A stretch of 64,000 bases of DNA from positions 5,574 to 69,573 of the forward strand of contig JAGLDC010000007.1 of NCBI GenBank assembly GCA_023145965.1. Direction: 5' to 3'. Both the position numbers and the translations under genes were made by a program. Shown piece by piece: positions 13,408 through 50,151 of the stretch. Origin of the DNA: a bacterium (lineage in GTDB: Bacteria; UBP14; UBA6098). A model generated the notes under the pieces. That model was not told the origin of the DNA. It worked only from the letters and a program-made list of their open reading frames with translations, and searched no databases. Position 1 is the first letter of the stretch. Each line of letters starts with the position of its first letter.

Positions 13408-13430
13408 CGTTATTCGACCTTACTATCGTT

Positions 13431-15248: not shown

Positions 15249-15263
15249 TTTAGCCCTTTCGGG

Positions 15264-30698: not shown

Positions 30699-30846
30699 TT
30701 AAACTTGACTTTTTGCAAATAATGTTTTAATTAATAAGCTTGTTTGAAGTCGTTATTAGTATGGGAAATGGAAAATATTGTTAAGTATAAGTTTGAATAG
30801 AAAGAATTTTATTTTTAATCCGATACTCCCGAGGAAGGGGGCATTA

Positions 30847-33800
30847 ATGGAATTTAACGCAAGAATAACGAGTGTCGCTATTGTATGCGTATTGCTTTTA
30901 GGTTCGGGCGTTCTTTTTGCTCAACCTACGGAACCACTTTGCGCAGATTTAGTGACAACCGGTTACGGCCTTATTGGTGATACCCTCGAAGGCGATTTGG
31001 TGCTTTCAGGATTCGTTAAAGGGCACAGTGTTTCGCTTGAAGTGATGCCGATGTGTGTTTCTCCAACGCGCCAATACCGTTTTTTCCGCACACCACTGGG
31101 AGCTTCGGTGCCTGATCTACAGACAGATTGGATGCCGATGGCATACACCAATATGGATGGTGGTGGTGACAGCGAAGTATTCAAATACTATGCCGCCGTG
31201 ACCGACGGTGATACAGTGACGTATTCCAATCCTGACGAGGATCCTGCAATGGACCTCTGGCTTATGCACGATTGGTATCGTCCTGACCGTATCGAGGGGA
31301 TTTCGACTTACTATTATCCGAGCCCCACGCGCATTCGTATCAACTGGTATAAAGGCACTGACAGCGCTTCTGGAGTTTATAAATATTATATTTATCGAGC
31401 TCCAAGTGGCCTAGGATATACACTCGAGTATATCGATCCTACCGAAACTCCTATCGATTCGGTTCTAGATGATGGTCGTGCTTGGTATGATTGGTCGGAT
31501 TATGAAGTTACTCCGGATGAATGTTACTGGTATGTTATTGTCCCGATGGACAAAGCTGGATGGATACGCAGGGATGGCAATGATATTTTCCGTCGTTGCG
31601 CCGCAGTTTCCGGTTTTGGATTCCCGCCTTGCGCTCAACTTCAGCCGCTAGACAGATATCATGTCGGTGGTGGTGTGACAATTCGCGTTAATCTCGATGC
31701 TTGCCCCGGCGACCCCGACGAGGTAGTTCAATATCGGTTCCGCAAGTATGGTGTCTTTATTGATTCGGTTTCCGGCGATCCCGATATGTATATCATGGAT
31801 GAAACGGACTGGACGGATACACCGTTCTACTTCTTCTCGACGATGGAGTGTTCGACATACACATTTAGTGCACAGGCGAGATACCTCGGAGGAACGACAA
31901 GTCCTTGGTCTCACCTTATACCGACCTATCCACTTACCACAAACGATCCCACGCCTCCGGGGTGCCCGGATGAAATGTTCGCGCATTCGTATGGCGAGGA
32001 TGGTATATATGTTCATTTCGAGCAAGATCCGGGGGACGATTGTGGAAGTGGAATCCTCGGTTATCACCTTTTCCGTTTCCCTGCCGATTCGATCAGCGAT
32101 CATCTTCCACCGGACTCCAGCGATATTGCTGATTATGTGCTCTGGGAATATTATGTGAACGAAGAGGGGATTTATACATTCCAGGATGATGGCCCGACCG
32201 ACCCGGTTATTGATCTTATAGATAATGTCACATATTATTATGTAGTATGTCCTTATGATTCTGCTGGCTGGACAAATTGGCTTGATTGTGGGGATCTTCA
32301 GATAGATACCGCAACTGTTGATAAGGGCGTTGCCGCGCCAATGGCAAATAGGCTTCCGGCATATGCTTGCGATGGGGAGATTTATGTTGAATTCGTAGAT
32401 ACAACCCGTTGTGATGCCACCGAGGTCGAGATACAATGGTCGGCGGAACCGGAATTTGGCGGCGCGACATTCGTCGGCGTTGGCCCGATACCATTACACG
32501 GTGATACCGCGATCGGCGGTTTCTTCGATTTCACGAACCATGACGACGGTATCTGCACTAACTGGGATACGCTACAAGTCAATATCAGTGGTCTTTATGA
32601 AACACAGTGGTTCTTCCGCGCGCGTTTCTACGATATTCACAGCAACGTTTCCGAGTGGAGCAATATTTCTATAACACGCGTTGATAATACTCCGCCAACG
32701 ACAACGAGCATTATTAATGTTCAGTCTTTCTCGGATAGCGTTAATACTGTCGATATTCTTTTGAACTGGGATGAAAGTGATTTCAACGATGCTGATGGAA
32801 TTGGTATCGATTCGGTAAAAGTCTATCGTTCAGCAATGGCAGGCGATTTAGGAACCGTAATTGCCACAGTTTCCAAATTTGATAACAAGTTCGTCGATTA
32901 CGATCCTGTTCCGACGAACAACTGGCACGATAATGTTTATCGAGTGGTGCCTTATGATTATTGCGGACATATGAACACCGAGGGCGGCCAAGGTTGTTTT
33001 GCAGCACTTGGACAGCATCCGCCGGCAGTCCCGCGTATCGACACGGTTCTTGTTAGTCACTATCTCGATTCCTTCACTATAGTATGGTCGGATACCGGCA
33101 TAAGCCCGCTTACGACGAAATATGTTCTTCGCCACGGTGGAACCGAAAGCTGGCTTTGGATCGGCGACACAATTATCGCCCCCAATACTCACCTCGGCAC
33201 GGTGCCTTCGCATCGCTACACCTTCCCAATAGAGGAACTTTTCGGTGGCCCGAGGCATTATTTCATGATGTATGCCCTTGATGGTGAATCCCCGGCTAAC
33301 CAGAGCGGTTGGTCAGAGGTTTTTGCTTTCGATCTTCCTGAGGCGTTGACCGTCACGGATACTATTCATATTCGCGCTGGATGGAACTTTATCAGTCTTC
33401 CGGTTATGCCAGCCAATAATGAGGCTAATGTCATATTCCCCGGTGGACTTGATTATTATGAATGGAATCCAACGACCTCGATATATGATCCGATTACTGT
33501 TATGCAACCGGGTAAAGCCTATTGGGTGCTTATGTCATCCACAGCGGATTATCCGATTACAGGTATTCCTGTGGTCAGAGTCGAGGAGACTGAAATTGGC
33601 CCTGGATGGTGGAGTATTGGAACTCCTTATGATTCTACTGTTGCAATGCTTGGGAGCGGTTTTACCTGGGACGGAACCGGTTGGGCACGAGCCTACGGTT
33701 ACGATGGTGAAACACCTTATTATACGACAACCCATCTGAATGGTGGAGAGGCGTATTGGCTTCTTCTCAGCGGAACAGGGGATTTTTATTCCGAAGCTGG

Positions 33801-34464
33801 AATGGCTAAAGGGATAGTCGATGATCCGGTTATCGATTGGAACATAAACATCGATATAGATGGCAGTCCCATCGAACTGGCATATTCGACTCACGCCGAA
33901 AGCGGAATCGATGCGGCAGATATTGTAATGCCGCCTGCGCCGCCATCGGGTGCCTTCAGCCCATGTTTCGTTGACGAATCTGGCTATCGTTACTTGCGCG
34001 AGGTAAGGCCGGATGGTGTATGGAATATCTCGGCGCCATATGGCTCTATCATTAGCTGGAACGCAAAGGCGCTTCCTTCGGTTGAACTTGAGATTGTTAC
34101 CGATTTTGGGACGTTTGATATGCACAAGGTTGAAAGCATAGAATTCCTTGGGACAGCGAAAGTTGTTACAAAGGGCGTTCTTCCGACCGAGTTTACTCTT
34201 GGTCAGAATGTTCCAAATCCATTCAATGCTACATCTACGGTGCCGTTCAGCGTTCCGGTGGATTCAAGAGTGTCCATTAAGATATACGACATCAATGGCC
34301 ACACGATTTCGACCCTCGTCGAGAGCTATGTCGAGGTTGGAAGCCATCGTGTTGTTTGGGATGGTTTGGACGATCTCGGACGATCTGTTCCTTGTGGAAT
34401 TTACCTTTGTAGGATGGAAGCGGGGAGCTTTGCCGAGACAAGGCGAATGCTTCTAGTGAAATAG
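30847..34464 (+). CDS. Giant secreted surface protein (1205 aa) with a T9SS C-terminal sorting domain
   Basis: Signal peptide MEFNARITSVAIVCVLLLGSGVLFAQ. Aromatic/Asp-rich beta-sandwich-like repeats. C-terminus QNVPNPFNATSTVPFSVPVDSRVSIKIYDINGHTISTLVE..HRVVWDGLDDLGRSVPCGIYLCRMEAG matches the type-A T9SS CTD. Confidence 0.75.
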   Translation: MEFNARITSVAIVCVLLLGSGVLFAQPTEPLCADLVTTGYGLIGDTLEGDLVLSGFVKGHSVSLEVMPMCVSPTRQYRFFRTPLGASVPDLQTDWMPMAYTNMDGGGDSEVFKYYAAVTDGDTVTYSNPDEDPAMDLWLMHDWYRPDRIEGISTYYYPSPTRIRINWYKGTDSASGVYKYYIYRAPSGLGYTLEYIDPTETPIDSVLDDGRAWYDWSDYEVTPDECYWYVIVPMDKAGWIRRDGNDIFRRCAAVSGFGFPPCAQLQPLDRYHVGGGVTIRVNLDACPGDPDEVVQYRFRKYGVFIDSVSGDPDMYIMDETDWTDTPFYFFSTMECSTYTFSAQARYLGGTTSPWSHLIPTYPLTTNDPTPPGCPDEMFAHSYGEDGIYVHFEQDPGDDCGSGILGYHLFRFPADSISDHLPPDSSDIADYVLWEYYVNEEGIYTFQDDGPTDPVIDLIDNVTYYYVVCPYDSAGWTNWLDCGDLQIDTATVDKGVAAPMANRLPAYACDGEIYVEFVDTTRCDATEVEIQWSAEPEFGGATFVGVGPIPLHGDTAIGGFFDFTNHDDGICTNWDTLQVNISGLYETQWFFRARFYDIHSNVSEWSNISITRVDNTPPTTTSIINVQSFSDSVNTVDILLNWDESDFNDADGIGIDSVKVYRSAMAGDLGTVIATVSKFDNKFVDYDPVPTNNWHDNVYRVVPYDYCGHMNTEGGQGCFAALGQHPPAVPRIDTVLVSHYLDSFTIVWSDTGISPLTTKYVLRHGGTESWLWIGDTIIAPNTHLGTVPSHRYTFPIEELFGGPRHYFMMYALDGESPANQSGWSEVFAFDLPEALTVTDTIHIRAGWNFISLPVMPANNEANVIFPGGLDYYEWNPTTSIYDPITVMQPGKAYWVLMSSTADYPITGIPVVRVEETEIGPGWWSIGTPYDSTVAMLGSGFTWDGTGWARAYGYDGETPYYTTTHLNGGEAYWLLLSGTGDFYSEAGMAKGIVDDPVIDWNINIDIDGSPIELAYSTHAESGIDAADIVMPPAPPSGAFSPCFVDESGYRYLREVRPDGVWNISAPYGSIISWNAKALPSVELEIVTDFGTFDMHKVESIEFLGTAKVVTKGVLPTEFTLGQNVPNPFNATSTVPFSVPVDSRVSIKIYDINGHTISTLVESYVEVGSHRVVWDGLDDLGRSVPCGIYLCRMEAGSFAETRRMLLVK

Positions 34465-34490: not shown

Positions 34491-37400
34491 ATGATAAAAA
34501 TAAACATAAAGGATAAGGAGCGAGCCTTGAGAGTAAAGACTATGCCTATTATACTCGGTATTCTGGCTCTCGGGCTTTTTGGAAGCCTGTTAGCGCAATC
34601 AGCGCCTGTAGTTGAGCCGGAGCCGGCATATACTGCGGGACATGTCAACCCTTTGCTGTGGTCCGAACCTACAAGCTATAGTGTTACAATTTCAGCTTGG
34701 GAGATTTGGGTTGATACAGCATCTACCGGATTTCCTGATTGGCCGGATTCGGCCTATGAGGAGCTTTTGGGACCAGATAGAATCTCTATCGGCCCGATAC
34801 CGGTGACAGATGCTGCTGATTTCGGTTCTACCTACGGAAGCGAATATGCTTATCCGATCGGTAGCGGTGTTTATGGCGATTCCGACGATCCTCTTACTTC
34901 AGGATTGCGGTATTGTTATAAAGTGCGTTATCGTTGGTACACACCGCCTTCAACTTACGGGTTCTCCGATTGGTCTGAGACACATTGTAGTGTTCAGGAT
35001 GCCGCACCACCTACTGTCGAAATTGATTCTTTACCGGATTGGTGGAATACCGATGAGGTATCGATTCATTATATAGCCAATGATGCCCTCGTTGGTGAAG
35101 TCGATAGTGTGGTATTATATTACAGAATGCCGCCTTCGACCGATTGGATTAGGGTGTTTGCAGAAGCACCGCCACCACCTGGTTACGACGACTATATGGA
35201 ATTTGATATTACAGGAACCGGCGATGGTGAATACGAGTTTTTCATCGGCGCATGGGATGCCTTGGGCAATGGAACCATTCCACTGGGAACGCTTCATGCC
35301 CCAATGGCTGACACAAGGGTTGATGATACTGATCCGACAAGTGCCATTATAGAAACGGAAGATTTACCGCTTTATTATACAGGTTGGCCCGAAGGAATTA
35401 ATCTATTTTTCTCAGCCTCTGATTCATATAGCGGTTTAACAGCAGTCTATCTTGATACCGATTACGGCGATACTCCGCCGTTACCTTTCGATAGTCTATT
35501 TTTCCCGGCTGTGGAAAGTGTCACGCGCGATACCTTCGTATTTTCACGCACCGAGAATGGCGAGTGGAACATTCGTGCTAGAGCTGTCGATTTGGCCGGT
35601 AATCATGAATCAGAAACGACCTGGGATTGGACTTTTTATGTCGATACTCAGGAGCCTGAGTTTACTTCGACAACGGTTATAGACTCGACAACGGTTTCCC
35701 ATCGCTATGATGTTCCTGCAATGCATGGCTGGACAAACTCTCGGGCCGTCAAAGTAACGCCCGAAAGCGCTATCGACCCATTGGTTGATGGTTATGCCAG
35801 CGGCTTGGATACCGTTTCGGTTGCCTCGAATTCGGCATTCACCGAGGATTATATGGCTTTTGTGGCAGGAACACCGCCCTATATTTGGATTACTTCGGAT
35901 GACGACGGCGCAAAGGAAGCATATGTCCATCTCAAGGACAGAGCTACTAATATCAGCGAGTCGAGGTTTGGGGTAATCGAACTCGATACCGAGGTTCCGG
36001 TTCTTTCGGCATGCACACTTTGGAACCATGTAACGCCGGATACCTACACCGACACAACGGTTTCGCTCACTGTCGATGTTACCGCTAATCTCGATCCTTA
36101 TTACGGCTCGGCCAGCGGAATATACTTCGCGCAGAATGCTTCCAATCTTAATTCCATTGATACTGACGATTGGCAGGCGGTAGATGGCGATTATACATTT
36201 ACCTTCGATGGCTTCTCATCGGGCGAGTGGATGACGCTTTATGTTGTAGTTCGCGATAGTGCTGGTAACGTTAGCGAAGCTGCGATAGATAGCATAAGGT
36301 ATATTCATGGAAATAAGTGGGTCGAAATATTCAATATTCGCGATATCGACGGCCCCGATGTTACAGGAAGATACACCGATACAACCGAAATATCTATTGA
36401 GATAGCATACGGTAATGGAATAGATACATTATTGGTTTGGGATGGAAGCTCCATGTTGGGATTACCCGATACTGTTTTCCCTGTGGACGATCCTACCGGT
36501 GATTCGGATACGATAACCATAATTGGCAAACTTGAAAGGACAGACGGTTGGCATACATTGTCCGTTCGCGGAAAGACCGATTATGATATTATCCTCACAG
36601 ATCCGGATACTGCTTCGATAGAGCTTGATATTCAGCATCCGACGGTTCCAGATTTTCTCGTGTTAGACCTTACGATACACACAGAACCTTCAGGTCCTGC
36701 AGATGTTGCCGATACAGGTTGGACGAACGATGCAGATGTTAAAGGCATGTTCACTGGCAGCTACGACACAGGTGGCGAATCCAGTGGAACCGGCCTTTAT
36801 AGGTATAAGGTATCCATCGATACTCTAGTTCTCGGCACTGATGCATTCCCGGGGACTTATCAAGTTGACTTTGCGCTTCCAGTCGCTGATGGCCCTAGTG
36901 ATGTTATCGGTGATGTTCAGGATTCCAGCGGGAATTGGGCCTCTGAAGATGCCGACCCGATTTTCAACATTAAACTCGATACACATATTCCGACTATAGA
37001 CTCGATCCAGCTTTTAGATGCTACAAGTCTTTCACCGGATTATACCGACGATCCAAGTATCGTTGTTAAGATTTTCGGCGATGATGATCCATACACGCCG
37101 GCTTATGCATCGATTTTCGAGGATGGAACGGATTATCCAAATATCGTCCGCTCGATACGCCGTTCATTCAGTTCGGGGACATTAAGTTATATGCTTACAG
37201 ATACGCTCACAGGCGGTATTAAGACGGTTTATGTTGCTCTTATGGATAGAGCTGGGAATATCTCGGCGATTTCTTCGGCCACAATCGTATATAATAAGGA
37301 AATCGTTCTCGACATGTCGCTTTACGACTGCGATAGCGAACCAGAGAATAATGAATGCACGAATGACCCAACTGTTGGTGTGCATTTGTTTGCTTATGGA

Positions 37401-39278
37401 ACTCCGGCTGCAGCTTATATTCTTTCCGAGACACCGGGCGGTTTGCCCGAACCTGACGACCCGCGTTGGATAGACTATCCCGAGAGCGGTGATACTTTAT
37501 TTACCATGGTATTGGATGCCACCGAAGGCGAAAAAGTTATTTATGGATGGCTTCTTTCCGAGAGCTATATAGTCAGTGAGATGGACGAAGACACTATCTA
37601 TCTTGACATGACAGCACCGGAACAGAATGAGGGGTTCTTCGTATGGGATACCACTTCGGGAGATAACTTCCCCACCATATTTAAAGCGGCTATGGGCTGG
37701 TCGAACGAGAGTTATATATTTGCGCAGGTGCCTTTCTCCTATGATGAGGGCTGTGGAACCGATAGTATAAAGTTCTCTGGTGGTATCGACCTTGAGCTCT
37801 GGAGAGACATCGACCATGTTATTGATATCGAGGAACATAGTATTTCATTGGACTTCAGAACGGATAGTCTTCCATTGGTTATCGACACAGACTCCGAGGG
37901 TAGAAAGCAGATAGTTTCGCGTCTTCGCGACTCCGCAGGTAATTGGGGCAATGTTTTCGATCCATTGAGTCAGATAACCATACACGGCGGTTACGATGTT
38001 ACCGCACCTGATTTCGATTTTCTCGATGTTTTCAGTGAAGAGGTTACGGATAGCGTTACTTCGGTGCTTCCGAACTCTCTTCCAATAAAATTCATGGACG
38101 ACCCCGCACCGGGCTTTCTCTGGAAAGTTTGCTGGCAGATCGACTCCGATCCAACCAGGATAAGTTGCACGACTTACGATTCAACCTGGGATACGCCTGC
38201 CGATAGTATTTTCTATGCGGCTTTCCCGGGCGATTTAACAAGTGGTCTTGTTCCCGATCAGCATTACGATCTCAGTATAGTAGTGATCGATTCGGCGGGT
38301 AATCCAAGCGATCTTAAAACAGCGGATCTATTAATAATACCGGATTCAATCGAGTTCGCTTTCGAGGTTGTCGATACTAATGATCTCGAAGATAGCGATT
38401 ACTGTGGCGAAGTAACTGTCGCCACGCATGTTATGATGGATAATCCTCCGGATTATATGAGATTCGGCGAAAGCGCAAGCGGTTTAGGTAGCTGGATGGA
38501 TTATTCCGAATATGGGGAGTTCACGTTTAGCTCCAGCTTGAACCAGATGAAATATGTCTATGCTCAGATTCGTTATGGAACACAGGAATCAAAGATTGCG
38601 GTAGATTCAATCATTCTCGATACTCAGAATCCAAGCGTTTCTAATATCGAAGCCTTCGATATATCGACTGGCGATAGATATTATTCGGACGATGTGGAAA
38701 TTGGATTTAAGGCCTATGGTGCCAGCGATCCTAATCCGGGTATTGTGGGTGCTATGCTCATTGCTGAGGATGCAGATTTTACACTGAATGTTCAGAAGTG
38801 TGAACTCGATCTTACTGATACAACTTGCACTTATACTGCTTCAGAACTTGCAGATATAGATGATGATGCCTCAGCTTCCGGTGAAATTCGACAGGATGCT
38901 AGAGTATTTTGGGTGAAGTTGCTCGACCGCGCCGAGAACCCGGCTTCGATTAAAATGCCCGCTATTGTTATAGATTTAGATGAAGAGCTTGTGACCAACT
39001 TCCCAAATCCTTTCGATCCGACGGAAGAACCCACTATTGTTAGGGTCAAGGGGATTTCGATAGGTGGATCGGTAGAGGTTAGTATCTATGATAATTATGG
39101 TAACTTGGTATGGAATACGACAGTCTCCGCTCTCGGTGGAAGTAAAACAGTTGATGTTTTGTGGAACGGCAAGAACGGAAAGGGTGATGTTGTTGCCGGA
39201 GGAGTTTATGTGGCAATTGTAGAGGTCGAAGGAGAAATCATAAAACGCAAAATAGCTGTATGGAAGGGGGGTGAGTAG
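34491..39278 (+). CDS. Giant secreted surface protein (1595 aa) with a T9SS C-terminal sorting (FlgD-Ig-like) domain
   Basis: N-terminal signal (MIKINIKDKERALRVKTMPIILGILALGLFGSLLAQS). Many Ig/cadherin-like Asp/Thr-rich segments. C-terminus TNFPNPFDPTEEPTIVRVKGISIGGSVEVSIYDNYGNLVWNTTV..VLWNGKNGKGDVVAGGVYVAIVEVEG fits the CTD pattern. Confidence 0.75.
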   Translation: MIKINIKDKERALRVKTMPIILGILALGLFGSLLAQSAPVVEPEPAYTAGHVNPLLWSEPTSYSVTISAWEIWVDTASTGFPDWPDSAYEELLGPDRISIGPIPVTDAADFGSTYGSEYAYPIGSGVYGDSDDPLTSGLRYCYKVRYRWYTPPSTYGFSDWSETHCSVQDAAPPTVEIDSLPDWWNTDEVSIHYIANDALVGEVDSVVLYYRMPPSTDWIRVFAEAPPPPGYDDYMEFDITGTGDGEYEFFIGAWDALGNGTIPLGTLHAPMADTRVDDTDPTSAIIETEDLPLYYTGWPEGINLFFSASDSYSGLTAVYLDTDYGDTPPLPFDSLFFPAVESVTRDTFVFSRTENGEWNIRARAVDLAGNHESETTWDWTFYVDTQEPEFTSTTVIDSTTVSHRYDVPAMHGWTNSRAVKVTPESAIDPLVDGYASGLDTVSVASNSAFTEDYMAFVAGTPPYIWITSDDDGAKEAYVHLKDRATNISESRFGVIELDTEVPVLSACTLWNHVTPDTYTDTTVSLTVDVTANLDPYYGSASGIYFAQNASNLNSIDTDDWQAVDGDYTFTFDGFSSGEWMTLYVVVRDSAGNVSEAAIDSIRYIHGNKWVEIFNIRDIDGPDVTGRYTDTTEISIEIAYGNGIDTLLVWDGSSMLGLPDTVFPVDDPTGDSDTITIIGKLERTDGWHTLSVRGKTDYDIILTDPDTASIELDIQHPTVPDFLVLDLTIHTEPSGPADVADTGWTNDADVKGMFTGSYDTGGESSGTGLYRYKVSIDTLVLGTDAFPGTYQVDFALPVADGPSDVIGDVQDSSGNWASEDADPIFNIKLDTHIPTIDSIQLLDATSLSPDYTDDPSIVVKIFGDDDPYTPAYASIFEDGTDYPNIVRSIRRSFSSGTLSYMLTDTLTGGIKTVYVALMDRAGNISAISSATIVYNKEIVLDMSLYDCDSEPENNECTNDPTVGVHLFAYGTPAAAYILSETPGGLPEPDDPRWIDYPESGDTLFTMVLDATEGEKVIYGWLLSESYIVSEMDEDTIYLDMTAPEQNEGFFVWDTTSGDNFPTIFKAAMGWSNESYIFAQVPFSYDEGCGTDSIKFSGGIDLELWRDIDHVIDIEEHSISLDFRTDSLPLVIDTDSEGRKQIVSRLRDSAGNWGNVFDPLSQITIHGGYDVTAPDFDFLDVFSEEVTDSVTSVLPNSLPIKFMDDPAPGFLWKVCWQIDSDPTRISCTTYDSTWDTPADSIFYAAFPGDLTSGLVPDQHYDLSIVVIDSAGNPSDLKTADLLIIPDSIEFAFEVVDTNDLEDSDYCGEVTVATHVMMDNPPDYMRFGESASGLGSWMDYSEYGEFTFSSSLNQMKYVYAQIRYGTQESKIAVDSIILDTQNPSVSNIEAFDISTGDRYYSDDVEIGFKAYGASDPNPGIVGAMLIAEDADFTLNVQKCELDLTDTTCTYTASELADIDDDASASGEIRQDARVFWVKLLDRAENPASIKMPAIVIDLDEELVTNFPNPFDPTEEPTIVRVKGISIGGSVEVSIYDNYGNLVWNTTVSALGGSKTVDVLWNGKNGKGDVVAGGVYVAIVEVEGEIIKRKIAVWKGGE

Positions 39279-39280
39279 TC

Positions 39281-41095
39281 ATGAGTAGAAAATTTAAACT
39301 CGACTATCTCTGGATTATCCCGCTTTTCGCATTGGTTTCTTTCTCAGCTTTCGCTCAGGATGGCAGTGCCGGTCAAGCCGGGGAGCTTCTCCGTAGTGGA
39401 CTCGATGCAAGGAGTTTCTCTATGGGCAGAGCATATACTGTAATGCCCACAGGGGGCGATGCCCTCGTTTGGAATCCCGCCGGATTAGGAAAACTCGGAC
39501 GCTGGGAATTTCGTTTCATGCATGCTCAAGGCTATGTCGATAGCAGAACCGAATACGGAAGTTTCGCTATTCCTATCGGGGATCTCGGTGGTTTTGGTAT
39601 AGGCTTTGCCAATGAAGGAGTGACCTCTATAGAGGGCCGCGATGCTTTCAACCGTTCTACCGAAGAAATTTCTTGGGGAGAATCAGCCGCTCTGTTTGGT
39701 TGGGGTCGGGCGTTCATGCAGAACAAATTGTATGGTGGTCTTACCGCTAAATATGTGATGCAGAATATGGGAGACGAATCCGCAAATGGTTTTGGCGGCG
39801 TCGATGTCGGCTTTCTGTCTAAAGAATTCATGTTTAAATATCGCGTTGGTTTGACGCTTCAGAACCTCGGTGCAGCCGAGGTAGCTGGTGATGCCTATCC
39901 GATGACCGTTCGAGCTGGCGTCGGTTGGAGGGTTCTTAATGACCTTTATGTTACAGCCGATGGTGAGATGGTTTCTGGAAGGGATATTTCACCGCGAGTC
40001 GGCGCTGAATATCATCTTGGATGGGTAGCAATCCGCGCAGGATACGATATAATGAAGCCAGAGCTTACATTCGGACTTGGGTTGATGATCGACAATATAG
40101 CCGGTAGAGTTGCAGGGACTTATCCGAGATTAGATTATGCCGGAGGAGCATTAGCGCCGATAGGCAATAATTTTGCGAGAGTTTCTTTGACTCTTATGGG
40201 CGAGGAAATGAGCAAACTTGAGGATATTGAAGGTGATCCGTGTTCACAGTTATCGACCATTGAACCGCATATGAGTAAGCGCGGTTTTGTTGGAGCGAAA
40301 GCAAACTTGATCTACGGAGAATGCCGTTTCAAGGCTGAAGCTCTTGAAGCACCATTTGACATTGAACCTCGTTTTGGCGAAATTCATCCCTTCTTCAATT
40401 CTGCCTATTATGGTAAGTATGGTTCTAACTGGATGACCGAGATAGTTACGGATACTCTAGCTCAGACTGTATTTAGCCAGAAAACACATTATATGTATGC
40501 TGAAACGCGTATGGCTAAAGGCATAGATGAAGAAGCCAAAATCCTTCTTGATCAATTGATTTCGGCAGGTGGCGACAGCGCTCAATATGACCTTCGCCTT
40601 CAATATGATCTAGCTTTGATCAATGAAGAATTAGGCGAAACTGACGCGGCACTTAAGGACTACGAGTCTATCGCAGGGAAGAATGTAGATGACCCTGTTA
40701 AGGTTCTCGCTCTTTATCGTGCAGCAAATATACTCAGAGATAGAGATAAGACGAAGGCAATTAATTACCTAGAGACTTTAGTAAGTAAATATGGATCAGG
40801 CTTTTATGATGAAAGCGGTGAAAGAATCGGCTATCCCATGTTCCCCAAGTATATGGATAACTCGATTGCCGATGACGCTACGATCCTGTTAGCCGATATT
40901 ATTTTCTCCACTGCAAGCGGAGACCCAACCGTGCTTCGTAAAGCATTGGGACTTTATCTAGATGTTTTAATTTACTATCCGGATATGCAAGCTTCGATTC
41001 GTCGTGAAGCTGCGGAAAAAGCCGCTATATGTTTCGAAGAACTTGGAGATTCCGCGAGCGCAGCTTCGATGCGCTCGAAAGCGGGTGAGATTTAA
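39281..41095 (+). CDS. Putative outer-membrane beta-barrel (PorV/PorQ/PorP-type, FadL-like) fused to a C-terminal TPR-like domain
   Basis: Signal peptide ..LFALVSFSAFAQ. N-terminal motif DARSFSMGRAYTVMPTGGDALVWNPAGLG resembles the conserved start of T9SS-associated FadL-like barrels. Gly/aromatic-rich alternating strands follow to ~aa 330. The C-terminal 250 aa is helical repeats (TPR-like). Confidence 0.4.
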   Translation: MSRKFKLDYLWIIPLFALVSFSAFAQDGSAGQAGELLRSGLDARSFSMGRAYTVMPTGGDALVWNPAGLGKLGRWEFRFMHAQGYVDSRTEYGSFAIPIGDLGGFGIGFANEGVTSIEGRDAFNRSTEEISWGESAALFGWGRAFMQNKLYGGLTAKYVMQNMGDESANGFGGVDVGFLSKEFMFKYRVGLTLQNLGAAEVAGDAYPMTVRAGVGWRVLNDLYVTADGEMVSGRDISPRVGAEYHLGWVAIRAGYDIMKPELTFGLGLMIDNIAGRVAGTYPRLDYAGGALAPIGNNFARVSLTLMGEEMSKLEDIEGDPCSQLSTIEPHMSKRGFVGAKANLIYGECRFKAEALEAPFDIEPRFGEIHPFFNSAYYGKYGSNWMTEIVTDTLAQTVFSQKTHYMYAETRMAKGIDEEAKILLDQLISAGGDSAQYDLRLQYDLALINEELGETDAALKDYESIAGKNVDDPVKVLALYRAANILRDRDKTKAINYLETLVSKYGSGFYDESGERIGYPMFPKYMDNSIADDATILLADIIFSTASGDPTVLRKALGLYLDVLIYYPDMQASIRREAAEKAAICFEELGDSASAASMRSKAGEI

Positions 41096-41148
41096 TTATG
41101 AAAAACCAAAAAACCAATATAACTAATATGTTTCCCAAGGAGGAACAA

Positions 41149-42516
41149 ATGAAGTTTAACCGCATCGCAAACGGCGTGATGCTGGCAGTGCTTTTCGGAA
41201 TTATTGCAATTTGTGGAACCCTAGCGGCGCAAGCGCCAGCTGAACTGGATTCTATTTGGTTGCATACTTCCGATGCCAAGTGGGAGAAAACCGACGAAGG
41301 TTTTAATCTCACGATGTCATGGGAGCTTTACATCAAGAAAGCTCAAGATAAAAAAGGCTCTAAATTTTCAGGTGAATGGACTAAACTTTCTCCTGAGAAT
41401 GTAGAGTATACTTATCGCGTAGAAGTAGCTACTGATTCGGTTTTCAGCCAAATCGATAAGACTCAGGAAACTAATGAGGCTTCGCTAGTAATCCGCGATC
41501 TAAACTTTGACAAGTTTTATACTTCCAGAGTGCGTATTGTAGATCCTCCGGTCAATTATCGAGACGATTTCGCTGCCGGAACGATTTATAAACATGAAAA
41601 GGAAACCGGCGGAAAAAGCGAAGAACGAAAAGGCGTTATTGGTTTCTTACTTTTCGCCTTCGATAAGGGCGGATGGCAAACCTACGTTATTATTGCTCTC
41701 GCTTTATTGGGAATCCTGGGAGTTATGCCGATAACATGGTATAGACTTCGTTTGGCGAATATCTTCCCGCCGAATAAACCCGGGTTCTTATATTCGGCTT
41801 TGCCTTTCGATAGAACCGGGAAATGCGATCATCTATCGCCTAAGGGCAATGTCTTTGTTCGCGAAGTGGCAAAATATTGGTCGCGGGCTATGGCGGCTAT
41901 GGCATCCGATCCCTCGAATTGGGAGAGCACCGATGCTTTTATTAAAGCTACGGCTCAAGAACAAGAGGAAGTTAAGAAGCGCCGTTGGATCGAAGAGGGT
42001 CTTCCTGCGATAGAGCAGGCTATCGATGTCTGTAAAAATGGCGTTCCCGGTATCAAACTGAAGAAAAAACCGCTCGACTACCCGTTCCCGCGCGTTCTTC
42101 TCGCGGCGCTGGAAAATCAGAGGATTAACCGCAATAACTGGTGGGCGAGTCAGGAAATGGACAGAGCCGTTGAGAACACCTCGTTTAAAGAAATCGACGA
42201 TCTTAAGGGATGGAGTGTCACGGCATTCTGGGCTTTAGGTTCGGTTGAGCCTATGCTCGGTTTGTTCGGCACTGTTGAAGGAATTCAGAAGGCCTTCATG
42301 AAGATCCAGGAGCAATTAAAGGAAAATCCGGATGCGCCTATGGCCGATACGATTGAAAACCTCGCAGGAGGTATTCATCAAGCGCTTATTACCACGTTCT
42401 TCGGATTGCTCTTCGGTATTCCGTTCATGATGATTTACTATTATTATCGTGGAAAAGCTGATTGGGTTTTCTCCAAATGGGAGGAAATCGTTATCGACCT
42501 ATTAAACAGGGCCTAA
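41149..42516 (+). CDS. exbB: MotA/TolQ/ExbB-family proton channel protein with a ~200-aa N-terminal extracytoplasmic domain
   Basis: C-terminal part has three TM helices and the family motif MLGLFGTVEGIQKAF. Strong SD AAGGAGG lies 5 nt before the ATG at 41149. The N-terminal signal peptide is followed by a beta-rich domain with no recognisable family. Confidence 0.75.
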   Translation: MKFNRIANGVMLAVLFGIIAICGTLAAQAPAELDSIWLHTSDAKWEKTDEGFNLTMSWELYIKKAQDKKGSKFSGEWTKLSPENVEYTYRVEVATDSVFSQIDKTQETNEASLVIRDLNFDKFYTSRVRIVDPPVNYRDDFAAGTIYKHEKETGGKSEERKGVIGFLLFAFDKGGWQTYVIIALALLGILGVMPITWYRLRLANIFPPNKPGFLYSALPFDRTGKCDHLSPKGNVFVREVAKYWSRAMAAMASDPSNWESTDAFIKATAQEQEEVKKRRWIEEGLPAIEQAIDVCKNGVPGIKLKKKPLDYPFPRVLLAALENQRINRNNWWASQEMDRAVENTSFKEIDDLKGWSVTAFWALGSVEPMLGLFGTVEGIQKAFMKIQEQLKENPDAPMADTIENLAGGIHQALITTFFGLLFGIPFMMIYYYYRGKADWVFSKWEEIVIDLLNRA

Positions 42517-42532: not shown

Positions 42533-43102
42533 ATGCCCAGAAAACAAACAGAGGCTGTACCTTCTGCTGACTGGACCTCCTTAATCGATATCATCTTCCA
42601 GTTGCTCATCTTCTTCATGGTGACGCTGGCTATGGGGACAGTCGAGCAACAGGCTAGTGCCCAGATGGAAGGTGAAATGGATGAGAGCCTACCCGAGTTG
42701 CCCGGAATGAGTAATCTCGGTGAAGCCTTAGAAATCGGCCCCGGCGTGATACTTATTCATGCCGCTTACGATGAAGATAATGAAGTTGCAGGCGATATAG
42801 TAACATATCTCTTTACGAACGAGATCTCGAATATTGAAGAGGCGAAGAAAGATTCAACTCATAGCGCGGGTCCGTTCTCTTGGGATAAAGCCTATAAGAA
42901 GCTGCAAAAGCAGCTTACTTTTGCTCGTGATTACAACGAAAACCTTCCGAGGGTCGAGATGAGGGCTTTTAAGGGAACTCCTTACGGTAATGTTCTCGAT
43001 ATTATGAACCTATGCTATCACGACGAACCCGAAATGAGAATCGATCAGGTATATTTTAGGTTTGCTAGATTAGCTAGAGAGCAATTGGGAGGTGGAAGTT
43101 AG
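42533..43102 (+). CDS. exbD: ExbD/TolR-family biopolymer transport protein (paralogue 1)
   Basis: N-terminal DWTSLIDIIFQLLIFFMVT is the ExbD/TolR TM signature. SD AAGGAGGGG. Confidence 0.75.
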   Translation: MPRKQTEAVPSADWTSLIDIIFQLLIFFMVTLAMGTVEQQASAQMEGEMDESLPELPGMSNLGEALEIGPGVILIHAAYDEDNEVAGDIVTYLFTNEISNIEEAKKDSTHSAGPFSWDKAYKKLQKQLTFARDYNENLPRVEMRAFKGTPYGNVLDIMNLCYHDEPEMRIDQVYFRFARLAREQLGGGS

Positions 43103-43663
43103 ATGCAGAGAAGATATCTTAATCTTGAAAGCGCCGACTGGACGCCTTTAATCGATATTATCTTCCAGTTGATGATCTTCTTCCTGGTAACGATGAGCGT
43201 TCTTCCGGCGGTGAAATCTGCACCGCAGGTCGAGGGGAATATGTCGCTTCCGACACCGAATCAAGGAAGTTCTGAAGTCTCACACCTTATTCAGATATTG
43301 AAGGTCCCTTTCAAATCCGACATGTATGGTTATCTTGTTCTTGACGGCACTCCGCAATCTGCCGAATTCTATAAGGATGTTGACAGAAACCGTCAGTTTT
43401 TAGGTGACCAATATGCATTGGAAAGTGAAATTGTTCTTGGAACAAATATGGGGCTTTGGTTTAACGAGACAAGTCTTAAAGCGAAGTTTCAAGAAGCCTT
43501 CAGTCAACAGGATGTTAAGGTGATTATTAGAGCTGCCAGGAATGTCCCATATGGAGAGGTAGTAAAGGTTCATTCGATATTGTTTAATATCGGTATATCC
43601 AAGATCGCTTGGTTGGATGGCAAGATTGGAACTCTTAAGGCTGACATCAAGGAGGTGAGGTAG
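43103..43663 (+). CDS. exbD: ExbD/TolR-family biopolymer transport protein (paralogue 2)
   Basis: DWTPLIDIIFQLMIFFLVT. The start directly abuts the previous stop. SD GGAGGTGG. Confidence 0.75.
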   Translation: MQRRYLNLESADWTPLIDIIFQLMIFFLVTMSVLPAVKSAPQVEGNMSLPTPNQGSSEVSHLIQILKVPFKSDMYGYLVLDGTPQSAEFYKDVDRNRQFLGDQYALESEIVLGTNMGLWFNETSLKAKFQEAFSQQDVKVIIRAARNVPYGEVVKVHSILFNIGISKIAWLDGKIGTLKADIKEVR

Positions 43664-44230
43664 ATGAGCAAACTCAAACCTACCTATAAAGTTGTCGTTT
43701 TAAGCTTCGTCGTTATTTTATTGGCGATGTCTTTCGGTTGTAGAAACGCTGTCGAAGGCGAGAGCGGTTTCGAAACTGAAGATGGACCGAAGATAATCTT
43801 CCGTGGCGGTTATGGTAATATTGTTATCAAGTATCAACCACCGCCTGAACCAATATTCCAAGTTGGTAATGCAACTCGATATCTCGATTTCAATGAGTTA
43901 CAAAAGAAATTTGGTATCGTCGAGCAACCTTTAATTCTTTCTTATACTGTGAAAACTTCTGTGATGAGTGCGAGTATAGAAAGCAATACGCTTGATCCAG
44001 CATTCGATAACGAAATTCTTGCGGTTATCAAGAGCTGGACCTATACCAGATGGGGCTTTGGTAGATTAAGGATCAAGATTGAAATGGCGAGAAGCCGAGT
44101 TACCGTAGATATGAGTGGAGCTAATCTTGCGGATAGAGTTCCTAATATGAGCATGCCACGCTTTGGCGAAGCCAAAGATATGGTCGCTGCATACGGTTTC
44201 GGAAAGGTTTCTCAGGCAGGTATAGATTAA
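43664..44230 (+). CDS. Lipoprotein / TonB-like energy-transducer candidate (by synteny after exbB-exbD-exbD)
   Basis: Signal peptide ending SFGC (lipobox-like). Short Pro-rich QPPPEPIFQ. C-terminal beta region. The position matches tonB in Bacteroidetes-type exbB-exbD-exbD-tonB loci. Sequence evidence is weak. Confidence 0.3.
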   Translation: MSKLKPTYKVVVLSFVVILLAMSFGCRNAVEGESGFETEDGPKIIFRGGYGNIVIKYQPPPEPIFQVGNATRYLDFNELQKKFGIVEQPLILSYTVKTSVMSASIESNTLDPAFDNEILAVIKSWTYTRWGFGRLRIKIEMARSRVTVDMSGANLADRVPNMSMPRFGEAKDMVAAYGFGKVSQAGID

Positions 44231-44237: not shown

Positions 44238-44270
44238 ACGCCCGTCTTGTGGCGGGCGTATTTTGACATT
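44238..44270 (+). terminator. Rho-independent terminator closing the cargo/Exb unit
   Basis: ACGCCCG (44238-44244) pairs with CGGGCGT (44253-44259), 8-nt loop, then ATTTTGACATTTTTT. Confidence 0.6.
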
Positions 44271-47300: not shown

Positions 47301-47674
47301 AGCATCCAATGGGAATTGCCTATAGAGCAAGTGATAGCAGGCTTTTAGTCACTGATATTGTCCAAGGGAAGGTGTTTGTTTTTTCAAAGACAGGAGACAT
47401 GATTGAGAGTTTCGCACTACCTAATCTAAAAAGCCCAAGTAGTATCTTCGTTGACCCTGATGGTTTTATCCTTATCTCGGACTATGTTAGCAATGCAATT
47501 TACAAATATACGAACAGATTCGAACCTCTCGGTGAAGTTACAGGTGAGATTGAGGCTCCGATTGCTATTGCGCAAATAGGGAGTGGTCCTGATGCAACAC
47601 TTTTTGTTGCATGTCAAGATGTTGTCGCAGTATTAAAGGGCGCATGGGACAATGCCTATACGCCGTCTAAGTAA
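44312..47674 (+). CDS. Large secreted TPR-like and NHL-repeat beta-propeller protein (1120 aa)
   Basis: Signal peptide MKKIIAGILFIALISVVGLVAQ. Long helical-repeat region. C-terminal NHL repeats (YVVDAGNSRIVVFEG; LLVTDIVQGKVFVFSKTGD; ILISDYVSNAIYKY). Confidence 0.6.
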   Translation: MKKIIAGILFIALISVVGLVAQDAEETTTVVDENILAEEADATATEAIEENSPVNPAMNQTGIGGINEAYEAGAEALQEGNSDSAISYFQSAVTIADVFLGGIVDPSEEAQAKYFKGLALYYWGKLAKDDGKLDEASAEFGEAISAFTAIEKLGRFYLDSKYRRALCSYRQYQNAKVENSQIRKLGQSYGDLRDFLEDPALQEAKDEMVSEIESGNYFSALCLLRRGQIKTFDPSEYKAAKNDLITAAGYFAELVDAKNQQIAIVSKLMEGLTHYYIARLYMQVTPENWEEVALSNKERDAVIMEELETADTRLKAAKSSVGAFATAVPYIDFAILYNKIARGAAGDASKLREALETLSSQSASGIWSKEKDILAADAQLLRYFSGEANAGAAVNGWSGLTGKDKIANYWIGWVKFIEAIEEPNNYPQSSAQFNNFLSGGSGSTREAIMRADAKFRDAECIFWDATLKELAPLLQEAKGTYESLISSSGAYFRYLPEEILKQAEVRIQIIEVQQRMASGTSDINRVITNLKMQGLNLPDDAAAYLNFGQYFLEKANREAGDKRIRDVGLAIGLFNHVAQNSSVKAGLLQEAKFLKGVGYVKKATAVQSQEEASSAMKEAQQILNGVTGKLATEAKYAIGVGFFNIEDKANARTALNSFKDNYLRPAFVYGMSSDGCVTKGTYLRKVISSTDRSDTWHIKATLAFDGLECKSSIPPQSNDLKSIGSPITYESLADAKAQMDELRSKAILMWEKVSPGMNAYPADDLIPDMPPKTTILVQFQIVDPNDKTISGDHSLIIDNDTEIAEKTDGSTYRATLSRATHKIEVNFRGYYKFSEELSITEEQTVPLVLKKAVRYVRRGSDVDNTNQPMAITADDEQLFVASNDKKTIFRRNAGENLIGSINYEDIGVSAVTGLALDGDYLLVVDGRSGQVKLTTVDGSDVQPIAVKGESYGGSPLVKPLSAISVDGRYYVVDAGNSRIVVFEGINFRSKFGVDQLEHPMGIAYRASDSRLLVTDIVQGKVFVFSKTGDMIESFALPNLKSPSSIFVDPDGFILISDYVSNAIYKYTNRFEPLGEVTGEIEAPIAIAQIGSGPDATLFVACQDVVAVLKGAWDNAYTPSK

Positions 47675-49245: not shown

Positions 49246-50151
49246 TTAGTCTTCAACCACTGCGGGAGATATATATTTTTTAGGATCTGTCGCTTTTCCT
49301 GATATCCTGACTTCGTAATGAAGATGCACACCTGTAGTGTTACCTGAATTCCCGCAAGTCCCGATGATATCACCCCGTTTAACGGACTGTCCCGGTCTGA
49401 CTTTAATTTCACTTAAGTGTGCATATCGGGTTTCGTAATATGTATGATTTACCCTAACCATCTTGCCATAGCCGTGATACCAGCCTGTAAAACGAACTTT
49501 TCCATCTGCGGTAGCGCGCACCGGTGTCCCTTTTCTTGCACAAATATCAATGCCTTCATGTTGTTTCCAAATGCCAGTAAAGGGATCGAGCCTTTTCCCA
49601 AAGCCAGAACTGACGTAACCCTTCATAGGCCAAATAGAAGGAGTGCGGTCGAATAGCGACTTTCTTTTAGTGAAGTGTTCTTGTGTCTCAAGAATAGCCT
49701 TATTTTCGGTCTGAGCGGCCACTATAAGGGAATCGAGTTTTCTGTCTATTTCTTTAGCGCGAGCTAAGATAATCGGTTGATCGGGATCAAGGTAAGCGAG
49801 TTCTGGGCCACCTATGCCATAAGAAAAATTGGATTCATCGATGGGGGGGAGGTCGGCTACCTCGCGGACTTTCGAGTTAATTTCCCTCAGATTGCCGAAG
49901 AGAATTTCCAGAGAATCTGCTCTATGTTCCATTATCTTTATATTTTGCGCGAGTAACTTATTATTATTGGATTGCGCGCGAGATTGAACAAGCTCATTAA
50001 AATTAAACAGATTGAAGCCGAAAAATAGCACATTTACAAGTATGAGGGCTCCGACTGCGAAAAGAATCCATCGAAGTCGTGAGCCCTCAATTCTGATTTG
50101 CCTGATCTTCCCCGAATGTGGGGGGATTATTTGAAAACTATATTTTCCCAT
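49246..50151 (-). CDS. M23 family peptidase (LytM/EnvC-like, N-terminal TM plus coiled coil)
   Basis: HEGIDICARKGTPVRATADGKV..GNTTGVHLHYEV zinc motifs. Convergent with the TPR gene, 4-nt gap. Confidence 0.85.
   Translation of the reverse strand: MGKYSFQIIPPHSGKIRQIRIEGSRLRWILFAVGALILVNVLFFGFNLFNFNELVQSRAQSNNNKLLAQNIKIMEHRADSLEILFGNLREINSKVREVADLPPIDESNFSYGIGGPELAYLDPDQPIILARAKEIDRKLDSLIVAAQTENKAILETQEHFTKRKSLFDRTPSIWPMKGYVSSGFGKRLDPFTGIWKQHEGIDICARKGTPVRATADGKVRFTGWYHGYGKMVRVNHTYYETRYAHLSEIKVRPGQSVKRGDIIGTCGNSGNTTGVHLHYEVRISGKATDPKKYISPAVVED

Follow-up and report, generated by a model that had tools for sequence, protein, structure and literature searches.

A PorV/PorQ-like barrel with a C-terminal TPR domain, encoded between a giant CTD protein and an Exb motor: a candidate dedicated surface-protein carrier in UBP14 and Zixibacteria-labelled genomes

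Results

A conserved gene block around the barrel–TPR gene

The window, by which we mean the whole 64-kb stretch of UBP14 DNA that was analysed, carries a block of genes in which a 604-aa protein combining an N-terminal barrel with C-terminal tetratricopeptide-type (TPR) repeats is encoded between a giant secreted protein and a Ton-type motor (Table 1). The protein is identical (100%) to the NCBI entry KAH81_00830, a hypothetical protein, and a homologue search recovered about 20 full-length homologues at 43–83% identity; two of these, at 46–47% identity, bear the NCBI name 'PorV/PorQ family protein'. The fusion family spans about 21 species, represented by UBP14 and Zixibacteria-labelled metagenome-assembled genomes (MAGs), and in the 21 fusion species the genes are ordered as follows: an M23 peptidase, a giant with a class I C-terminal domain (CTD), a giant with a class II CTD, the barrel–TPR protein, ExbB, two copies of ExbD, a lipoprotein and a TPR/NHL protein. 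This order is kept despite protein identities as low as 25–50%; the opening peptidase is syntenic in 19 of the 21 loci that reach that far and the TPR/NHL protein in all complete loci.

Table 1. Features of the barrel–TPR locus in window coordinates (A1, alignment in which conserved columns were read across 19 homologues of the barrel–TPR protein).
Feature	Position	Strand	Evidence or remark
M23 peptidase opening the conserved block	29379..30698	+	Peptidase_M23 E 3.7e-31
First giant secreted protein, 1228 aa, type-A-like (class I) CTD	30778..34464	+	FlgD_ig 29.8 bits; TIGR04183 E 0.0011
Giant secreted protein, 1595 aa, Ig-like repeats, class II CTD; proposed cognate cargo	34491..39278	+	Big_13, weak CHU_C
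Class II CTD of the 1595-aa protein, last ~100 aa, ending ...IIKRKIAVWKGGE	38976..39275	+	alignment, identity matrix
Shine-Dalgarno-like G-rich run GGGGGGTGAG	39265..39275	+	within 3' end of upstream gene, 6-16 nt before ATG
Barrel–TPR gene, 604 aa	39281..41095	+	ATG start, ORF list
Predicted Sec signal peptide, residues 1-25, cleavage AFA/QD	39281..39355	+	sequence reading
N-terminal hatch (~residues 30-72) and 14-stranded beta-barrel (residues 76-306)	39356..40198	+	
NPAGL motif N65-L69, in hatch	39473..39487	+	invariant in family
C-terminal TPR-like solenoid, residues 320-603, ~14 helices, probably periplasmic	40238..41089	+	
Invariant pair Cys321 and Cys348, first helical hairpin of TPR part	40241..40324	+	A1
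Most conserved TPR loop, Y518-P-M-F-P-K-Y-x-D-N527, candidate partner-binding site	40832..40861	+	A1
ExbB/TolQ-like proton channel with ~170-aa N-terminal periplasmic extension	41098..42516	+	MotA_ExbB E 5e-19; tolQ TIGR02796 E 7e-16
ExbD/TolR-like protein 1	42533..43102	+	PF02472 E 3.7e-9
ExbD/TolR-like protein 2	43103..43663	+	PF02472 E 5e-14
Small lipoprotein, 188 aa, PPPxPIF motif, TonB/TolA-C-terminal-like fold	43664..44230	+	
Secreted TPR and NHL beta-propeller protein, 1120 aa	44312..47674	+	NHL E 3e-5
TPR protein, 529 aa, end of cluster	47652..49241	+	TPR families; found in most loci
Second M23 peptidase, convergent	49246..50151	-	Peptidase_M23 E 7e-34; closes block in many species

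The original prediction had placed the gene between its cargo gene and an Exb motor, with its start codon just behind the cargo stop, and both points are borne out: the TAG of the 1595-aa reading frame occupies 39276–39278, two bases (39279–39280) before the ATG, and an ExbB-like and two ExbD genes lie downstream. Adjacency of the cargo and barrel genes is conserved; the gap measures -19 to +2 nt in the closer clade only and 25–166 nt in the distant species, and translational coupling of the two genes is plausible. A promoter/terminator scan of the block yielded fewer promoter-like sites than the shuffles, which is uninformative, and no convincing internal terminator. As for the motor itself, the ExbB-like protein probably starts at the ATG at 41140, as judged from the AAGGAGG that precedes it and from homologues that begin at a MKFNRI-type signal peptide. 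A fold search with a mediocre model of the 188-aa lipoprotein, built on a shallow alignment, points to a TonB C-terminal-like fold; its hhalign comparison with the TonB proteins of Elusimicrobia was not significant, and a PDB sequence search returned no match. Pfam and NCBIfam searches of the block found no Pal/OmpA-like peptidoglycan-binding domain, and the T9SS core genes (SprA/Sov, PorK/L/M/N, PorU) were not found within the 64-kb window.

A PorV/PorQ-like barrel joined to a TPR solenoid

The AlphaFold2 (AF2) model of the window protein shows an N-terminal hatch, a FadL-fold barrel of 14 strands and then a solenoid of helical hairpins, in agreement with the barrel topology and C-terminal TPR repeats foreseen from the sequence. 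PorV is the best match of the barrel in both structure and sequence: the NCBIfam PorV_fam model (NF033709) aligns residues 35–274 with profile positions 5–301 of 326 at 79.6 bits (E 3.1e-22), a score below the curated NCBI cut-off of 90 bits, and the equivalog models for PorQ (NF033711) and PorV2 (NF052325) reach 38.1 and 42.1 bits against cut-offs of 220 and 325, respectively. The barrel is PorV/PorQ-like. Of the models named in advance as checks on a PorV/FadL-type barrel, the PorV/PorQ-like one gave this sub-cut-off match, but neither PorP/SprF (NCBIfam) nor FadL/TodX (PF03349, Toluene_X; Pfam) gave a match at E <= 0.1. Pfam likewise returned no match to UPF0164 (PF03687) for the window protein; the latter family is at or near threshold in the homologue P0019 and in many long relatives of the barrel. 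A profile search of PDB sequences with the family alignment retrieved no barrel relative, only the TPR domain of CpoB. We rejected identity with PorP/SprF, for which there is no profile match, and with TonB-dependent transporters, because the barrel has 14 strands and lacks a plug domain.

The N-terminus is hydrophobic and conserved in type across the alignment, and AF2 places a helix at residues 8–20 at low pLDDT. The expected N-terminal motifs are present as LDARSFSMGRAY...WNPAGL, but the window protein reads MGRA where the prediction gave MGGA, a form seen in homologues. Within this stretch N65-P66-A67-G68-L69 is invariant in the 19 aligned homologues; an NPA motif is also found in the FadL hatch (PMC8407342).

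In the C-terminal part the TPR_6 match, at 25.6 bits (E 1.7e-5), falls short of its cut-off of 26.3; several homologues have a precomputed PF13174 assignment, and CpoB is the best PDB sequence match. Cys321 and Cys348 are separated by exactly 27 residues in 19/19 homologues, and no cysteine is conserved in the mature barrel, a distribution that fits an oxidising, periplasmic site with an intra- or intermolecular disulfide. The even strand number, the invariant cysteine pair and precedent together suggest that the TPR domain is periplasmic. The most conserved TPR loop has seven invariant residues (Y518, P519, M520, P522, K523, D526 and N527), with residues 518–527 at low pLDDT in the model.

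A CTD subclass genetically tied to PorV-like barrels

The two giants encoded upstream of the barrel end in CTDs of different classes: that of the 1228-aa protein scores 140.0 with class I versus 28.4 with class II, and that of the 1595-aa protein 110.8 with class II versus 34.3 with class I. Class II is marked by a terminal RKIAVxK, and the C-terminus of the 1595-aa protein additionally gives weak matches to PorZ and PorU models. Its CTD is 31–39% identical to barrel-linked CTDs of Elusimicrobia and other MAGs, as against 21–26% to the three other CTDs of this window. Two further CTD proteins of the window exceed the type-A cut-offs: 4198–5232 (TIGR04183, 30.9 bits) and 62014–63339 (PF18962, 32.7 bits).

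Across phyla, a barrel gene lies directly downstream of 44/50 class II CTD genes versus 2/39 class I (type-A-like) ones (p 2e-16), and of 32/37 versus 1/32 once training sequences are removed; since the barrel was used to retrieve the loci, these figures on adjacency are ascertained on loci that contain a barrel, and their weight rests on the contrast between the classes within those loci. The class II CTD is, in short, genetically tied to PorV-like barrels. Barrel-only relatives in other phyla are also paired with the CTD subclass, sometimes as several tandem pairs per locus, and the closest of them lies 13 nt downstream of the gene for a 1329-aa FlgD_ig-CTD protein. In Elusimicrobia MAGs the loci encode a giant CTD protein, a barrel, a TPR protein of about 1000 aa, ExbB, two ExbD and TonB; here the TPR is a separate protein and TonB matches Pfam TonB_C. 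The correspondence between the fused TPR and this separate protein is architectural only. The arrangement of barrel, TPR, giant CTD protein and Ton genes recurs in several uncultured phyla and has hardly been described before; literature searches on UBP14 and on T9SS in Elusimicrobia gave nothing usable.

Comparison with known carriers and TPR-bearing barrels

As had been anticipated, the architecture, a barrel–TPR protein within an Exb operon, is not one seen among canonical T9SS components. PorV (LptO) and PorQ of the Bacteroidota T9SS are barrel-only proteins of about 350–400 aa that lack TPR repeats, and PorV is a general carrier not encoded beside its cargo, whereas the window barrel combines both modules and lies in an operon with its presumptive cargo and a Ton motor. 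A parallel to the proposed role is offered by the PorP/SprF-like carriers of type B substrates, as in the SprB–SprF pair: they are dedicated, encoded beside their cargo and specific for a CTD subclass (PMC12618676, PMC9143113), and SprF anchors a giant adhesin-like protein and is tied via cysteines of its periplasmic C-tail to a motor-driven track (PMC12635249), much as the window protein has a probably periplasmic C-terminal domain with an invariant cysteine pair. However, SprF belongs to another barrel family, and the window CTD is type-A-like rather than type B; the SprF handle is a short CxC tail as opposed to a 285-aa TPR domain; and its motor is GldLM with a GldK track, where the window has ExbB/ExbD/TonB-like neighbours.

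In architecture, the FadL-like proteins TP0548, TP0859 and TP0865 of Treponema pallidum, which are related to UPF0164, also resemble the window protein in having a 14-stranded FadL-fold barrel, a hatch, an NPA motif and a C-terminal alpha-helical, presumed periplasmic extension with a TPR motif (PMC8407342). Their extension is however a short three-helix bundle, a role in nutrient import is proposed for them, and no adjoining CTD cargo or Exb genes have been reported. In Slam (type XI secretion, DUF560), PgaA and BcsC the TPR precedes the barrel, in contrast to the window protein; their barrels are of unrelated families, their cargos are lipoproteins or polysaccharides rather than CTD proteins, and Pfam found no DUF560 match in the window protein. 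Finally, FSU_2396–2403 of Fibrobacter succinogenes (OmpA, two TPR proteins, ExbB, two ExbD and TonB) likewise sets an outer-membrane protein and TPR proteins beside a Ton set, a likeness in gene content; the outer-membrane partner is of the OmpA family and the TPR proteins are separate. FSU_2396 and FSU_2397 are reported as members of a multiprotein complex on the cell surface, and FSU_2400–2403, the Ton genes, as up-regulated on cellulose (PMC6851124).

Discussion

We propose that the barrel–TPR protein is a dedicated carrier and surface anchor of the 1595-aa protein, coupled through its periplasmic TPR domain to the Ton-like motor, a reading that we regard as somewhat probable. Briefly, we advance the following mechanism. 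After export, the CTD of the cargo would remain attached to the barrel on its extracellular side, on the model of PorU–PorV, PorZ–PorQ and SprB–SprF in Bacteroidota; such binding is suggested here by the linkage of the genes. The TPR domain might then hang into the periplasm as a handle, by which the carrier–cargo complex could engage ExbB, the two ExbD proteins, the TonB-fold lipoprotein and the TPR/NHL scaffold, and the proton-motive force could in turn serve to extract the giant surface protein, to hold it or to move it. Coupling to the motor is likewise tentative, as gene neighbourhood alone cannot tell the barrel from another target of that motor.

The barrel might instead be a general PorV, that is, the universal type-A T9SS carrier of this lineage with a lineage-specific TPR extension, serving all CTD proteins. 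PorV is indeed the best match by family and by fold, NCBI applies the PorV/PorQ name to two homologues, and the two ordinary type-A CTD proteins of the window would need PorV. Yet the score falls under the PorV_fam cut-off and those for PorV2 and PorQ far under theirs, in 21 species the gene is fixed in an operon next to one for a special CTD subclass, and in other phyla the barrel-only relatives keep the same pairing, at times in tandem. Such operon locking and cross-phylum CTD pairing are the behaviour of dedicated carriers, and we consider a general carrier unlikely. The tight pairing would also be unexpected for a small-molecule channel and makes it very unlikely, along with PorV being the best match in structure and sequence and the absence of Pfam FadL/Toluene_X matches at E <= 0.1, that the protein is a Ton-energised channel of the FadL type, taking up substrates that are hydrophobic or large. 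Modelled on the proposal for the FadL-like proteins of Treponema pallidum, this would have the periplasmic TPR hand the substrate to periplasmic or inner-membrane carriers, with the giants as surface capture devices; FadL transport has no known requirement for TonB.

Several observations recall an envelope-maintenance or cell-division system of the Tol-Pal kind, in which a barrel-anchored CpoB-like TPR would stand in for Pal/CpoB and the NHL propeller for TolB, with the M23 peptidases remodelling peptidoglycan: CpoB is the best PDB sequence match of the TPR part and has been argued to be ancestrally outer-membrane-anchored (PMC12204202), TolQ is the best NCBIfam match of the channel, in most species the block is bordered by M23 peptidases, and the C-terminal folds of TonB and TolA are alike. 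Nevertheless, we judge it highly improbable: the TPR similarity is generic, the block has no detected Pal/OmpA-like domain, the Elusimicrobia version has a Pfam TonB_C match, and the block includes, as integral and conserved components, two giant surface proteins that bear CTDs. Most improbable of all is an outer-membrane biogenesis accessory with a BamG-like barrel and a BamD-like TPR for assembling or inserting the giants, since PorV scores higher, the neighbourhood contains no BamA, and the giants are soluble-type Ig-repeat proteins with CTDs rather than barrels.

Returning to the dedicated-carrier proposal, one may ask whether the block goes further and forms a self-contained Ton-powered machine for the export and anchoring, or the surface movement, of RKIAVxK-CTD giants, able to work without a canonical T9SS. 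Its parts would be the PorV-like barrel, the TPR scaffolds and the ExbB–ExbD–ExbD–TonB motor, and we consider it because Elusimicrobia-labelled MAGs, and others whose label is also non-FCB, contain the same set of parts; we hold it to be possible but rather unlikely. If true, it would represent a system for secretion or surface motility that had gone unrecognised, and the barrel–TPR fusion would be the clue linking the outer-membrane carrier to the motor.

To our knowledge, T9SS carriers have been studied almost only in Bacteroidota, where the dedicated ones are the PorP/SprF proteins for type B CTDs. The genetic linkage described here suggests that PorV-family barrels, too, may be carriers dedicated to a particular cargo, one with a CTD of a recognisable subclass. 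Such candidate carriers often bear TPR domains, probably periplasmic ones, and at least two deep lineages encode them beside a Ton-type motor. This offers a route to how surface-anchored giants couple mechanically to inner-membrane energy outside Bacteroidota and to the function of many uncharacterised 'UPF0164/PorV-like plus TPR' metagenome proteins; barrel–TPR fusions are common among the relatives of the window barrel.

Architecture and spacing of the barrel-TPR gene

The barrel-TPR gene encodes a 604-aa protein from an ATG, exactly where the original prediction had placed it, and carries the N-terminal motifs quoted there (LDARSFSMGRAY...WNPAGL), with N65-P66-A67-G68-L69 invariant across 19 homologues. 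By sequence, the first 25 residues resemble a Sec signal peptide cleaved at AFA/QD. The barrel had been described as FadL/PorV-like: its PorV affinity stands, with residues 35-274 matching the NCBIfam PorV/PorQ family model (E 3.1e-22), albeit at 79.6 bits, under the curated cut-off of 90, and the PorV2 and PorQ equivalog models weakly, whereas NCBIfam gave no match to PorP/SprF and Pfam none to FadL (Toluene_X). An AlphaFold2 model built on 19 homologues (mean pLDDT 77.8) bears out the expected barrel and helical repeats, with short N-terminal helices forming a hatch, 14 beta-strands within residues 76-306 and about 14 helices within 320-603; the helical half has a borderline TPR_6 match (E 1.7e-5), and its best solved relative is the CpoB TPR domain (E 1.6e-4). 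The mature protein has just three conserved cysteines, all in the helical part: Cys321 and Cys348, which are invariant and keep a constant spacing of 27 residues, and Cys584, shared by most homologues. Both ends of a 14-stranded barrel face the periplasm; hence, the cysteine pattern and strand topology would fit a periplasmic, disulfide-containing helical domain.

Only 2 nt separate the stop codon of the preceding 1595-aa cargo gene (39276-39278) from the barrel-TPR ATG, which follows a G-rich Shine-Dalgarno-like run within the last cargo codons, and another 2 nt separate the barrel-TPR stop (41093-41095) from the first ATG of the ExbB-like ORF. Because the closer clade shows cargo-barrel gaps of -19 to +2 nt, and more distant species gaps of 25-166 nt, what is conserved is adjacency and shared orientation; the predicted translational coupling is plausible in the window, but is no family constant.

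Coordinates of the features discussed
Sequence	Feature	Positions	Strand	CTD
Window	344-aa protein	4198-5232		class I, 4930-5229
Window	867-aa radical SAM fusion	6689-9292		
Window	M23 (LytM-type) peptidase	29379-30698	+	
Window	Giant 1 (1228 aa)	30778-34464	+	class I, 34165-34461
Window	Giant 2, cargo (1595 aa)	34491-39278	+	class II, 38976-39275
Window	Barrel-TPR	39281-41095	+	
Window	ExbB-like, from first ATG	41098-42516		
Window	188-aa lipoprotein-like	43664-44230	+	
Window	Hairpin	44238-44259		
Window	TPR/NHL	44312-47674	+	
Window	M23 (LytM-type) peptidase	49246-50151	-	
Window	Pyruvate phosphate dikinase	51321-54071 (ORFs 53565-54071, 51321-53558)	-	
Window	Amidase	62014-63339	-	class I, 62014-62320
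L032 (Elusimicrobia-labelled)	Parallel module	531-14070		
L037 (Elusimicrobia-labelled)	Parallel module	4269-18575		
L027 (unclassified)	Parallel module	15-12722		
L045 (unclassified)	Parallel module	3945-17158		
L026 ('Clostridia'-labelled)	Class II array	3352-10915		
L036 ('Clostridia'-labelled)	Class II array	3751-9646		
L049 ('Clostridia'-labelled)	Class II array	5223-10852		
L083	FGE-sulfatase-family gene	12655-13395		

A CTD subclass linked to PorV-like barrels

Four proteins with a T9SS-like C-terminal domain (CTD) are encoded in the window. When their last 105 residues are aligned with CTDs of related loci, two classes emerge: class I, ordinary and type-A-like, ending in ...LLVK or ...LYLK, and class II, with extra residues behind the PNPF motif and in mid-domain and a terminal RKIAVxK. 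The cargo CTD shares 31-39% identity with class II CTDs of Elusimicrobia-labelled and other MAGs, as against 21-26% with the class I CTDs from the same genome. Profile HMMs for both classes, run over all ORFs of 80-odd loci, recovered 50 class II and 39 class I ORFs. Since these loci were fetched through the barrel, the informative quantity is the contrast between the classes within the same loci: 44 of the 50 class II ORFs, from several phyla, end less than 400 nt (mostly less than 100 nt) upstream of a same-strand PorV-like barrel gene, against 2/39 for class I (Fisher p 2e-16). This difference persists upon removal of profile-building sequences and duplicates (32/37 against 1/32, p 3e-13). 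Throughout the lineage, giant 1 is class I in every species and giant 2, which adjoins the barrel, class II. The closest barrel-only relative in a 1.8-billion-protein library is encoded 13 nt downstream of the gene for a 1329-aa protein whose C-terminus carries a FlgD_ig domain.

As a separate observation, the amidase of the window combines an N-acetylmuramoyl-L-alanine amidase domain (Amidase_3) with Golvesin_C and a CTD that scores above the T9SS type-A threshold; the protein looks to be a peptidoglycan amidase bound for the cell surface or medium.

A fixed operon with a predicted Ton-type motor

The protein is 100% identical to hypothetical protein KAH81_00830 from an NCBI MAG labelled only 'bacterium', and about 20 homologues match it over the full length, at 43-83% identity. 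With each GTDB species represented by a single genome, the complete fusion turned up in 21 species, the closest being 'bacterium UBP14_UBA6098' and some carrying the Zixibacteria label. By tblastn with the window proteins, all 21 share one gene order: M23 peptidase, giant 1 (~1200 aa), giant 2 (~1560 aa), barrel-TPR, long ExbB, ExbD, ExbD, a ~185-aa protein and a ~1100-aa TPR/NHL protein, often followed by another TPR protein and an M23 peptidase in convergent orientation, with protein identities falling to 25-50%. The M23 peptidases bracketing the block, both syntenic in most of these species, hint at some connection with peptidoglycan remodelling.

In the ExbB-like protein, which has roughly double the usual length, a signal peptide and a ~170-aa periplasmic extension precede the C-terminal MotA_ExbB domain (E 5e-19; best NCBIfam match TolQ). 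The true start of the protein is probably the ATG at 41140, since this has a strong AAGGAGG site and the signal-peptide-like start MKFNRI common to homologues. Two distinct ExbD/TolR paralogues follow. The 188-aa protein has no family match in Pfam or NCBIfam. In 17/17 homologues, the signal peptide ends in a conserved, lipoprotein-like Cys26 and a PPPxPIF motif is present. By fold, the predicted core of the 188-aa protein best matches TonB C-terminal domains; on that basis, the protein would be a TonB-like transducer, unusually short and perhaps anchored by a lipid. With moderate confidence, we read these four proteins as a motor of the Ton/Tol type whose transducer is a short protein with a TonB fold. 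The TonB-like and TPR/NHL genes lie 81 nt apart, and the gap contains a GC-rich hairpin (7 pairs, 6 G-C) with a T-rich tail, which scored best on the minus strand in our scan and may serve for internal attenuation or RNA processing.

Parallel modules and related barrels

Four loci carry a parallel module: a class II giant (1500-1900 aa), a PorV-like barrel (433-506 aa), a ~1000-aa protein with TPR_6- and YfiO-like repeats, ExbB, ExbD, ExbD, TonB (Pfam TonB_C, E 1e-12) and a ~290-aa protein with a FlgD_ig-like segment. This is the module of the window with the TPR as a separate protein. Three 'Clostridia'-labelled loci contain tandem arrays of ~520-620-aa class II CTD proteins, one or two preceding each PorV-like barrel (317 or 403-431 aa); given their outer-membrane barrels, these MAGs may be diderm or wrongly labelled.

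An exhaustive barrel profile search yielded 18,065 cluster representatives (E <= 1e-3), only about five matching over the whole length. Because about 41 of the best 150 matches measure at least 490 aa, and 9/10 long ones sampled have C-terminal TPR repeats, a barrel with a C-terminal TPR is a recurrent architecture in this PorV/UPF0164-like branch; the TPR type seen here is rare, and fusions with a different kind occur in L028 (a Zixibacteria MAG) and L025 (an Elusimicrobiota MAG). Three matches (P0052, P0083 and P0087; 1254-1361 aa) each contain 3-4 separate barrel-profile matches, which could mean several fused barrels or gene calls that have run together. In L083, a few kb away from a barrel-only pair of cargo and carrier, there is a gene of the FGE-sulfatase family, to which GldK, PorK and GldJ belong; this gene may indicate a T9SS or track component in the organism concerned.

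Proposed role and comparison with known systems

On the best-supported reading, which we consider somewhat probable, the barrel-TPR protein is the dedicated carrier and anchor of the 1595-aa protein, tied to a Ton-like motor. The class II CTD would remain bound to the barrel at the cell surface, while the presumably periplasmic TPR would act as a handle joining carrier to motor and TPR/NHL scaffold; energy might serve (i) extraction from a translocon; (ii) tensioning; or (iii) lateral movement. Close precedents exist: type B T9SS substrates have their own adjacently encoded PorP/SprF carriers and stay bound to them (PMC12618676, PMC9143113), and SprF is tied via conserved cysteines of its periplasmic C-tail to the motor-driven track that propels the SprB adhesin (PMC12635249). 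The genetic logic is the same, although the barrel-TPR protein is not of the SprF/PorP family; its invariant Cys pair is reminiscent of the SprF C-tail cysteines, but may form merely an internal disulfide.

A general PorV with an extension is an unlikely reading: the barrel scores under the family cut-off and follows a class II cargo. A Tol-Pal-like division module is suggested by the TPR (CpoB-like), the channel (TolQ-like) and the M23 peptidases on either side, but seems improbable beside the two conserved giant CTD proteins. We give similarly little credence to a Ton-energised FadL-type importer, against which the lack of a Pfam FadL match speaks. A BamG/BamD-like assembly factor, which could likewise pair a TPR with a barrel, is highly improbable.

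The barrel is homologous to PorV/PorQ and would work in a like manner, but it scores under the curated cut-off and has an additional domain. FadL-fold barrels extended at the C-terminus by a TPR-containing segment have been described only for three T. pallidum proteins, whose authors saw no others in the Pfam FadL family (PMC8407342). Slam, PgaA and BcsC have TPR and barrel in the opposite order and serve other cargos. In F. succinogenes, an OmpA, TPR, TPR, ExbB, ExbD, ExbD, TonB block is linked to cell-surface complexes (PMC6851124). Our literature searches returned no account of PorV-family carriers dedicated to a CTD subclass, of frequent TPR fusion in such carriers, or of their operon link to a Ton-type motor. 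The module would gain in interest if it works independently of the canonical T9SS.

Other genes of the window

Pyruvate phosphate dikinase appears to be split into a 168-aa N-terminal ORF and a 745-aa ORF; the cause could be a frameshift or a fault in the assembly, or the gene could truly be split. Elsewhere, an 867-aa protein fuses the B12-binding radical SAM protein TIGR03960 to its usual partner, TIGR03936.
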